A stretch of 64,000 nt of DNA from Candidatus Heimdallarchaeota archaeon (GTDB lineage Archaea; Asgardarchaeota; Heimdallarchaeia; Heimdallarchaeales; Heimdallarchaeaceae): NCBI GenBank assembly GCA_018238545.1, contig JABCTC010000016.1, positions 10,950-74,949 on the forward strand, read 5' to 3'. Each line of letters starts with the position of its first letter. Positions within the stretch are counted from its first letter, which is position 1. Of this stretch, positions 2 through 2,155 are shown piece by piece. The notes under the pieces are model-generated. The model searched no databases. It was not told where the DNA came from and worked only from the letters and a program-made list of their open reading frames with translations. Both the position numbers and the translations under genes were made by a program.

Positions 2-490
2 AAGTTAGGATTTGCAGAAATAGGTATTTTCATCAGTCTTGGACCAGTTACTGTTTTCAGTGCATATTACATACAACAAGAGAAATTTTCTCCAATACCA
101 ATTTATGTGTCAATAATAGTAGGACTCCTAATCTCTTTAGTGCTATTTGTTAATCAGTTTCCAGATTACGAGGCAGATAAAGAATCTGGGAGAAGGAATT
201 TTATTGTTTTAGCTGGGAGAGAAATTTCCTCTATAGTATTTATCATTTTCTTGAGTTTAACTTATGTTATTCTTATAATATTAGTAATTCTCCAAATTCT
301 ACCCTACTTGAGCCTTATTGCTTTAGCATCTCTTCTATTTGCTGTGAAAGCTATGATAACAACCAGAAAATATTATGATGACTATTTAGCAATGATTCCA
401 GCTCAAGCTATGACTATACTTACAACCCTAGCTTTTACTGTTCTATTAGCTATTTCCCTATTTGTTGCTGGTGCAGTACGCACGTTATGA
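2..490 (+). CDS. menA: UbiA-family prenyltransferase, MenA-like (5' part lies outside the window)
   Basis: Frame is open from position 2 (KLGFAEIGIFISLGP...). Contains the NQFPDYEADKESGRR motif and several TM helices. Confidence 0.8.
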   Translation, partial: KLGFAEIGIFISLGPVTVFSAYYIQQEKFSPIPIYVSIIVGLLISLVLFVNQFPDYEADKESGRRNFIVLAGREISSIVFIIFLSLTYVILIILVILQILPYLSLIALASLLFAVKAMITTRKYYDDYLAMIPAQAMTILTTLAFTVLLAISLFVAGAVRTL

Positions 491-494
491 AACT

Positions 495-730
495 TGGTCA
501 AACTTGCCAGAGGCGGTCTAACCGTTGTTTAAGTGGGTCCCCTCACGTGCGTTGAGGGGAAGAATCATGAGGATCATGATTGGGGAAGGAAGGAAGGGAG
601 TGCGCATTTACTCCGACAACATTCCTGCCATTGCGCATCGTGCTGTATGGTTCAAGCTTTATTAACTGAGGGACAAGTGTTCAAACACTTGCGAACCATA
701 AATATGGCGAGTTTTCGCCAAGCACTACCC
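495..730 (-). ncRNA. Candidate structured non-coding RNA of unknown family
   Basis: GC-rich intergenic island with 8 or more nested stems. G-U-containing stems work only on the minus strand. TATA box about 25 nt upstream. 3' end uncertain. Confidence 0.6.
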
Positions 731-747
731 ATATATCAGCACTTTCC

Positions 748-755
748 TATATAAA
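748..755 (-). promoter_or_regulatory. Archaeal TATA box (TTTATATA) for the candidate ncRNA
   Basis: Plus-strand tatataaa; the usual ~25 nt spacing puts the start at G730, which is the 5' arm of the closing stem. Confidence 0.5.
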
Positions 756-883
756 CTCGTAGAAAAATGGAAGAAAATTGGAGAGATATTAACCATCACC
801 ACCTCAACATGCAATGAGGGACAACTCAGAGACTTCTGGCAAGATTGAATAAGATTTTAATCATCTGTTGCTTACGGTAAAAA

Positions 884-2155
884 CTATTCCCTTATTCTCT
901 CTTTATTTTTCATAACAATTTTTCCATCTTTGATTATCATATTTGTGTGATTAACCGCATATTGATATGGAAGCGAAGAGACACTAGGTAAATCTAGAAT
1001 CAGAACATCTGCATTCATTCCTAAATCAAGGCTACCAATTTGTTGTTCTCTGTTAAGCGATTTTGCTCCACCATAGGTTGCAGCTAATAGAGCTTCTTCT
1101 GGTAACATCTTCATCATAAAACAACCAAGAGCTACAACAAATTGCATATTTGTTAGATAACAATTAGGGTTAAAATCTGATGATAACGCTACTGTCACCT
1201 CTGCATCTTTAAACATATTATAATTTGCATATTTCTTTGACATTAGAACAAAAGGCGTTCCTGGGAGTAAATTTGCGACTACTCCTGCATCTGCCATAGA
1301 ACGAGCAGAAATTGCTTCTGCTTTTAAGAGATGGTCAGCAGATGTTGCACCAATGGTTGCAGCCATCAATGCGGCTCCGACATTTTCCATCTCGTCTGCA
1401 TGCACCCTTAGCTTGAAGTCGTTATCTAATGCTTCTTTCAGGAAATATTCAGATTCTTCAATTGAAAATGCACCTTGATCTGTCCAAATATCAACATATT
1501 CTGCTAAATTTCTTCTTTTGATTTCCGGCAAAAGAAGTATCATACTTTCAATATATTCCCATTGGTTTCCTATGAAATCTTCAGGTGTAACGTGACATCC
1601 CAAGAAGGTTGGTATAACATCTATTGGATGTTTTTCATTGACTTCATTTATTACTTCGAGGATTTTAATTTCGTCTTCGGCATTTAATCCATATCCAGAT
1701 TTTGCTTCAATTGTTGTAGTACCATGTACGAGCATCTCATCTAGTCGTTCCATAGCAAGTGCTACAAGTTCTTCTTTAGAAGCGGCTCGTGTCTGATTAA
1801 CTGTATAGGATATTCCTCCTCCGCCTTTAGAGATTTCAGAATAAGTCTTTCCTTGAATTTTCAAACTTAGCTCATGTGATCGGTCACCTGCAAAAACCAA
1901 ATGAGTATGAGAATCTACAAAACCAGGACATATAGTTTGTTTTGAACAATCAATTATCTCAAAATCGCTTCTTGTATACTCAGCTAGTATCCGAGAAGAA
2001 TCACCTATGGCTTCTATCACTCCATTACGTATTACTAAACTATCAGGAACTTCATTTGAGTAGATAGGTTCGTATTTCGTAACATTCCCTAGAAAAAGCT
2101 CAGAAGCGCTCGTTAGAATTATACCTTCTTTTTGATTAGAAATCATGATTGTCAT
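884..2155 (-). CDS. hutI: Imidazolonepropionase
   Basis: PGFVDSHTHLVFAG, GTTTIEAKSGYG, HADE, SADHL and SDFNP motifs. Confidence 0.95.
   Translation of the reverse strand: MTIMISNQKEGIILTSASELFLGNVTKYEPIYSNEVPDSLVIRNGVIEAIGDSSRILAEYTRSDFEIIDCSKQTICPGFVDSHTHLVFAGDRSHELSLKIQGKTYSEISKGGGGISYTVNQTRAASKEELVALAMERLDEMLVHGTTTIEAKSGYGLNAEDEIKILEVINEVNEKHPIDVIPTFLGCHVTPEDFIGNQWEYIESMILLLPEIKRRNLAEYVDIWTDQGAFSIEESEYFLKEALDNDFKLRVHADEMENVGAALMAATIGATSADHLLKAEAISARSMADAGVVANLLPGTPFVLMSKKYANYNMFKDAEVTVALSSDFNPNCYLTNMQFVVALGCFMMKMLPEEALLAATYGGAKSLNREQQIGSLDLGMNADVLILDLPSVSSLPYQYAVNHTNMIIKDGKIVMKNKERIRE

Follow-up and report, generated by a model that had tools for sequence, protein, structure and literature searches.

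Positions 478-878 of the window, as we call the whole 64,000 nucleotide stretch of Candidatus Heimdallarchaeota DNA analysed here, carry on the minus strand what is probably a self-promoted, stand-alone omegaRNA gene borne by a non-autonomous mobile element (MITE), with its scaffold at 478-728 and its guide running from 477 downward. The region sits within a 393 nt gap separating two convergent genes, and its GC content is 0.49-0.53 compared with ~0.33 in the flanks. The element and its neighbours are laid out as follows.

2-490, plus strand: UbiA-like ORF, ending at 490.
884-2155, minus strand: HutI-like ORF.
478-878, minus strand: whole non-autonomous element (MITE), a derivative of an IS607-family insertion sequence (IS); 401 nt, bounded by similarity.
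874-878, minus strand: left junction, ACCGT; a conserved target motif and putative TAM that would hold the recombinase core dinucleotide.
829-878, minus strand: left end (LE); CTTGCCAG at 836-843 repeats, in inverted orientation, CTGGCAAG of the right end (RE, 503-510).
773-828, minus strand: variable spacer, pairwise identity 0.45.
729-772, minus strand: promoter block, comprising a T-rich/BRE-like stretch, the TATA box TTTATATA (748-755) and the region transcribed first.
478-728, minus strand: predicted omegaRNA-like scaffold of ~250 nt, its probable start at ~725-728.

Copies of the element are dispersed. A 266 nt query gave 33 matches in its own genome (G000), many of them running to contig ends, and the family is present in 20 of the 23 genomes of the genus and in none of the 16 outside it. 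The relatives bearing names are Candidatus Heimdallarchaeota MAGs of the Asgard lineage, in agreement with the Asgard origin proposed in an initial annotation made from this sequence. BLAST of positions 301-1100 against the element's own genome bounded the repeat at 477/478 and 877/878; a full second copy was found at C43:96164-96563 (95.5% identity), a diverged copy on C90 (80% identity) and about six further copies cut by contig ends. At least nine copies occupy unrelated sites in this genome. Among 18 aligned copies, similarity stops exactly at ACCGUAAGC... at one boundary and at ...CAUAACGUGCGU at the other, the flanks beyond being unrelated. Pairwise identity by segment, computed among 12 non-redundant diverged copies, was 0.28-0.31 for the flanks, 0.72 for the LE, 0.45 for the spacer, 0.76 for the promoter block, 0.76 for the 5′ RNA domain and 0.88 for the 3′ module. 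Copies are found in both orientations and are mostly intergenic, the window copy being antisense to the gene it interrupts. Twelve contig ends in G000 lie inside MITE copies (C37, C96, C51, C42, C123, C125, C56, C9, C82, C33, C16 and C124); the MITE contributes notably to the fragmentation of this MAG assembly.

The orthologous site lacks the element in the two closest relatives searched (G010 and G002), whose HutI proteins are 94% and 91% identical to that of the window. In both, the same two genes lie 16-19 nt apart and 401 nt are missing between them; the empty site reads TTTTACC-AT-ACTG and the window TTTTTACC-GT[element]GCGT-ACTG. Insertion replaced the final residues and stop codon of the UbiA-like protein. 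The end of this ORF at 478-490 (plus strand) is supplied by the element, the window protein finishing ...AGAVRTL* and those of the relatives without the insertion ...TATVW* and ...TAAIW*.

The 30 left junctions read A-C-Y-G-T (A in 27/30, C in 30/30), and TTTTACCA stands at the place of this target motif in the G010 and G002 empty sites. Wherever both ends could be read (the window, C71, C82 and C90), the Y of the left junction equals that of the right end, GYGU (GCGU or GUGU). YGT is found at both junctions, and a crossover at YG or at GT is indistinguishable from sequence; the motif fits a serine recombinase for which element and target must share a core dinucleotide (YG or GT), on which reading up to three terminal bases of each element end may be target-derived. 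The inverted 8-mers of LE and RE were read straight from the sequence. Terminal inverted repeats and a classical target-site duplication are absent from the window MITE, as is a transposase gene of its own, its open frames being short and non-conserved.

Both ends of the element recur in a larger IS. Some 18 further genomic places match only its last ~100 nt (window 478-573), and these short 3′ modules lie at the 3′ ends of ~640-aa ORFs that match guided_TnpB (E 3e-7) and a Cas12f1-like_TNB domain. On contig C71 an ORF for an IS607-family serine transposase (NF033518, E 2e-50) lies upstream of tnpB, and the LE of this tnpA/tnpB-bearing IS matches window 834-882 (left 49 nt; BLAST). Since both ends are shared with such an IS, the window element is a MITE of an IS607-family IS.

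A TnpB-like gene is present in all 23 genomes of the genus. The partner proteins are 638-648 aa long, with ~400 N-terminal aa that have no Pfam match (L028, from G000 C71, with a 647-aa protein encoded on its minus strand at 603-2546; L029; L030). The RuvC-I Asp and RuvC-II Glu are present and the RuvC-III Asp position is occupied by His, N-T-H standing in all copies seen where the TnpB/Cas12f RuvC-III motif is N-A-D. With His in place of this Asp, cleavage by the partner protein is not assured. TnpB branches with the same replacement have been described and their authors think that activity is kept (PMC10691335). The L030 element (G000 C106:15200-18900), which adjoins a host P-type-ATPase-like gene, is an IS with left-end motif, promoter, tnpB and right end; as it lacks tnpA, the family occurs in tnpA+tnpB, tnpB-only and gene-less forms. 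Distant paralogues were found in G003, G021, G012, G015, G009 and G004 (L083, L084, L085, L086, L090 and L091, respectively), several with a tRNA-like gene on the other strand ~60-120 nt past the right end (e.g. of the ...GGTGCGGGGAGGGAGATTCGAACTCCC... type).

An unannotated, multi-domain structured RNA on the minus strand had been proposed initially, and folding bears this out: the minus-strand fold reaches -83 kcal/mol (z = -4.06, 0/200 shuffles as good), the plus-strand fold z = -2.75. Covariation was assessed in the alignment of 18 diverged copies, 69-98% identical, where 97% of cells are paired overall; sliding the partners by 1-3 columns lowers this to 34-40%. As the copies are kin by descent, shuffle statistics overstate significance and these counts are descriptive only. 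Eight pairs are altered on both sides, and G.U cells outnumber A.C cells (44 vs 15), which favours the minus strand. The parts of the RNA, all on the minus strand, are listed from its 5′ end.

640-725: 5′ three-way-junction domain, made of P1-P4 and the single-stranded motif GUCCCUCAGUUA at 663-674.
721-725/640-644 (P1), 716-720/705-709 (P2), 693-700/646-653 (P3) and 686-690/675-679 (P4): helices of this domain, 94-99% paired.
597-636: H-type pseudoknot, GCGCA at 632-636 with UGCGC at 602-606, the loop of GGAG/CUCC (611-614/597-600).
581-596: pyrimidine tract CUUCCUUCCUUCCCCA; from about this point the sequence resembles the parent IS.
564-580: hairpin AUCAUGA-UCC-UCAUGAU, 98% paired, with one-sided variation only.
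538-560: 'nexus'-type hairpin UCCCCUCA/UGAGGGGA, with an invariant stem and the loop ACGCACG at 546-552.
490-530: final stem-loop of the scaffold, outer AAAC/GUUU and inner GGUUAGA/UUUGACC, 97-100% paired.
478-484: CGUGCGU, the final element bases and 3′ strand of the terminal pseudoknot.
458-477: predicted guide of inferred length, ACUGCACCAGCAACAAAUAG, lying antisense to the UbiA-like gene at its 3′ end.

Most of the helices drawn in the initial annotation are kept by compensatory changes in the 18 copies. Its four stems of the 5′ domain hold throughout, P2, P3 and P4 each having two double-changed pairs (six in the domain), and a second MITE family retains P3, P4 and the motif GUCCCUCAGUUA in a different sequence. 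The GGAG/CUCC stem is 97% paired, and the suggested pairing of its loop with upstream GCGCA is found in 15/18 copies, pair 94-127 being CG in 7 and UA in 8, with 3 unpaired in register. The hairpins at 564-580 and 538-560 are likewise kept in the copies, and the final stem-loop, which overlaps the putative TnpA site CTGGCAAG and direct repeats CAAGUUU, has U-A/U-G/C-G variation at one pair. Three of the pairings drawn fared worse. Variants of the proposed closing stem (727-730/535-538), which lies at or before the likely start, are uncompensated in the alignment; the UGGCAG/UUGUCG hairpin is only 63% paired; and for the supposed switch between GUCCCUCA and UGAGGGGAC the partner is invariant while variants of the motif are only partly compatible with it. 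RNAalifold returned a pairing between 633-636 and the distant 3′ end, which was set aside because the two pseudoknots have compensatory changes instead. No conserved ORF was found within 478-728. A 73-aa plus-strand ORF at 533-754 was considered as a coding candidate and rejected, as it is not retained in other copies.

The most telling feature is one that the initial annotation missed, namely the pairing of loop 546-552 with 478-484. The nexus loop ACGCACG is complementary to the final seven element bases, CGUGCGU, giving a terminal pseudoknot of 7 bp that is 100% paired in the 18-copy alignment. Over 46 copies loop and end covary at three positions (ACACACG/CGUGUGU in six copies, ACGUACG/CGUACGU in one and AUGCACG/CGUGCAU in one), and paralogues whose proteins are 40-49% identical have CGCAUG/CAUGCG, CGCAUA/UAUGCG, CACAUA/UAUGUG and CACAUG/CAUGUG. 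Pairing of the nexus loop with the 3′ end of the scaffold, before the guide, has been described as universal in TnpB omegaRNAs and Cas12 guide RNAs (10.1101/2023.11.20.567912), and in the reRNA of ISFba1 pseudoknots are essential for function (PMC11061315).

By analogy with these RNAs, the guide is predicted to occupy the flank from 477 downward. Scaffold conservation stops at 478, the transposon boundary, in all copies, and the flanks beyond are unrelated (identity 0.28). The guide flank of the window copy occurs nowhere else in the genome, and no two of the 27 right-end flanks in G000 are alike; when a second genomic target was sought for each guide, none turned up beyond its own flank, bar one incidental AT-rich match. 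The target motif fits the expectation that it should equal the TAM of the nuclease, as it does in CboIStron, which has the core GG and the motif TGGG (10.1101/2023.11.20.567912). Since the right junction presents GUGCGU before the guide, an occupied site would lack the motif.

A rival reading has the element serving only as a substrate of TnpA, its fold combining a relic of the tnpB transcript with recombinase sites acting at the DNA level and any transcript having no guide function. The two ends supply the requirements of TnpA (for CboIStron, an LE of 40 bp and an RE of 60 bp suffice; 10.1101/2023.11.20.567912), LE and RE hold inverted 8-mers and the 5′ domain appears to descend from tnpB sequence. 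Moreover, the 3′ module is also a recombinase substrate, and so its conservation alone does not show an RNA role. However, promoter and 5′ domain are conserved at 0.76 where the spacer has 0.45, and neither is needed for transposition; the helices are retained through compensatory and G.U changes; and loop and 3′ end covary across distant paralogues, which a protein-binding site would not require. We therefore consider a plain transposition substrate unlikely, though it is the strongest competitor of an omegaRNA gene.

The RNA would have its own promoter, as had been claimed from the sequence. The TATA box TTTATATA (748-755) lies 20 nt upstream of the conserved block GUAGUGCU, which starts at 728, and is found in every copy, the variants TTTAAATA and TTTACATA included. 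No copy of the three MITE subfamilies lacks it; the RNAs of the two further subfamilies differ, one (L019, L022) having a diverged 5′ domain and a minimal MITE (L023) passing from the promoter almost directly to the 3′ module. Conservation of the TATA block (0.76) does not extend to the adjoining spacer (0.45). A profile of the promoter block (nhmmer) found its homologue directly 5′ of the tnpB ATG (L030, E 1.4e-3; L029; L028). Searching with a profile of the complete IS gave three collinear segments of similarity to MITEs: IS positions 123-198 correspond to the MITE promoter, 992-1098 to P2-P4 with GUCCCUCAGUUA (marginal, E 0.013-0.17, and in one subfamily only) and 2101-2197 to the 3′ module. 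From this collinearity the MITE resembles a tnpB transcription unit that has undergone internal deletion; it would have retained its promoter, its guide scaffold and, between them, a constrained RNA module since reshaped as a three-way junction. Similarity to tnpB-bearing copies (nhmmer) sets in at about model position 146, and the pyrimidine tract CUUCCUUCCUUCCCCA aligns with the 3′ coding end of tnpB; the suggestion of an anti-Shine-Dalgarno sRNA found no support.

The middle piece lies within tnpB, ~1120 nt upstream of the right end, where a hairpin is followed by GUCCCUCAGUUA, and its synonymous-site identity is 0.88-0.89 compared with a background of ~0.55. This synonymously constrained mid-tnpB stretch seems to be the source of part of the extra 5′ domain. 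Synonymous identity is 0.8-0.9 (vs ~0.55) at tnpB codons ~79-85, 283-295 and 307-337 in L030 numbering; only the second of these stretches (FTLFDHFMQSVPQ, hairpin and GUCCCUCAGUUA) was linked to the MITE RNA.

The sharing of hairpin and motif between the MITE 5′ domain and the constrained part of tnpB would also suit a regulatory RNA of the transposon family, acting either as a decoy that titrates the TnpB-like protein or on tnpB mRNA through the common module. Such a role is improbable, because the guide scaffold is kept in full together with its boundary, more than a decoy would need, and because the motif has the polarity of the tnpB mRNA, to which no complementarity was found, and is not antisense to it.

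In Rfam, no match was obtained at gathering thresholds over the whole window, including to RAGATH-18, group I intron, RNase P and SRP models, and at E up to 10 only chance-level matches to unrelated families (SNORD28, PrrB/RsmZ, lncRNA) were returned over 400-900. The initial annotation had seen no hallmark of tRNA, 5S, SRP or RNase P, and no known family gave a strong match. The SNORD28-like C/D-box match (791-869, minus strand, in LE and spacer; 18 bits, E 3.4) is taken as chance, being far under threshold and in a region poorly conserved among subfamilies. An own promoter, strong structure and no Rfam family had suggested a stand-alone host ncRNA gene (a scaffold, ribozyme, anti-SD sRNA or template RNA), an interpretation now scarcely credible given at least nine copies at unrelated sites, a target motif, sharp transposon ends common to an IS and an orthologous site that is empty in the closest relatives searched; dispersed copies with target-site signatures were what the initial annotation itself had named as refuting it. 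Among the functions then suggested, a template-bearing RNA came nearest, in the form of a guide RNA; ribozyme and scaffold are without support. Equally remote is a self-splicing or self-cleaving RNA, that is a mini-IStron with a group I intron or other ribozyme: some IS607 elements do carry group I introns (10.1101/2023.11.20.567912) and the RNA is pseudoknotted, but no group I or other ribozyme model matched at E up to 10, the window copy is antisense to the gene it interrupts and copies lie in both orientations, mostly between genes. A group II intron or IStron was rejected on account of unfitting ends, the lack of a model match and the wrong orientation, and host RNase P or SRP RNA on account of copy number and the empty site.

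Taken together, these data favour a MITE-borne omegaRNA gene, for which we propose the following mechanism. The parent IS encodes a serine-recombinase TnpA and the 640-aa TnpB-like protein, and finishes with the ~100 nt right end. From it the MITE has both ends, the promoter of tnpB and, it appears, a remodelled stretch of the mid-tnpB transcript. Transcription would start at ~725-728 and cross the right boundary at 478 into the flank. The final ~100 nt would fold as a TnpB omegaRNA scaffold, with loop 546-552 paired to 478-484, and the next ~16-20 flank bases, from 477 downward, would serve as the guide. The TnpB-like protein made from full-length copies would bind and load this RNA in trans, and the complex would recognise, and possibly cleave, the unoccupied allele (ACYGT plus a guide match), favouring retention or homing of the MITE. 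TnpA, also in trans, would move the element via the core dinucleotide at ACYGT sites.

Further observations weigh against the guide reading. The 5′ 145 nt have no counterpart beside the scaffold of the parent IS, which implies that they are dispensable for a canonical omegaRNA and may serve otherwise, and the element has no built-in terminator or defined 3′ end. Our guess is that the extra 145 nt 5′ domain is an added protein-binding or stabilising module. A bolder idea, which we put forward tentatively and think less likely to be right than wrong, is that the guide RNA of the His-variant Asgard TnpB has a second functional module (hairpin plus GUCCCUCAGUUA), located mid-tnpB and ~1.1 kb from the scaffold in full-length elements and fused to it in cis in the MITEs. 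If so, the natural omegaRNA would be bipartite or extended and the MITE its compact single-chain form.

What appeared to be an orphan Asgard ncRNA has become a defined, testable system, which would consist of a compact promoter and guide-RNA cassette, for which the ACYGT motif and the place of the guide can be read off, together with a partner nuclease whose active site is unusual. Should the 5′ domain work in the RNA, it would show an enlarged TnpB using more RNA than the canonical scaffold, and would offer a natural single-chain design. There are also consequences for the annotation of Heimdall MAGs, as these elements break assemblies, alter gene ends and mimic host ncRNA genes.

As stand-alone mobilised omegaRNAs acting in trans have been described for OMEGA/TnpB (Altae-Tran et al. 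2021, as summarised in PMC10691335), the kind of system is already known. The window element differs from this kind in its transplanted tnpB promoter, its 145 nt 5′ extension, apparently derived from mid-tnpB, its Asgard host and its enlarged His-variant partner. Like the stand-alone RNAs of that summary, it has a predicted guide-RNA scaffold at a transposon right end that is mobilised without nuclease or transposase, in a genome that also holds effector-bearing copies, the new flank of each copy being the presumed guide. Unlike them, it has a copy of the tnpB promoter and a structured 5′ extension of 145 nt, in an Asgard host.

With CboIStron (10.1101/2023.11.20.567912) and ISFba1 (PMC11061315) the family shares a serine TnpA, an LE-adjacent target motif that should equal the TAM, a scaffold ending at the RE, and pairing of the first hairpin loop with the 3′ terminus immediately ahead of the guide; a core dinucleotide common to both junctions, YG or GT, would be a further likeness. 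ISFba1 carries a RAGATH-18-derived reRNA (PMC11061315), whereas the window RNA matches neither RAGATH-18 nor any other Rfam model. The motif here is ACYGT and not TGGG or AGGAG, there is no intron, and the partner has ~640 aa instead of ~390, with His for the RuvC-III Asp. In being short, gene-less and multicopy, with both ends and insertion polymorphism, the element resembles the MITEs/PATEs of IS200/IS605-IS607 and archaeal MITEs; unlike in these, most of its length is, by prediction, a selected, promoter-driven RNA and not just two ends, and terminal inverted repeats and a classical target-site duplication are lacking. Sense-overlapping transposon RNAs of archaea are known as sotRNAs. The archaeal IS200/IS605-associated omegaRNAs (PMC12558985) likewise cover the 3′ end of tnpB and continue as far as the right end; they are, however, made from tnpB-bearing copies, whereas the window element is tnpB-less and has a transplanted promoter.
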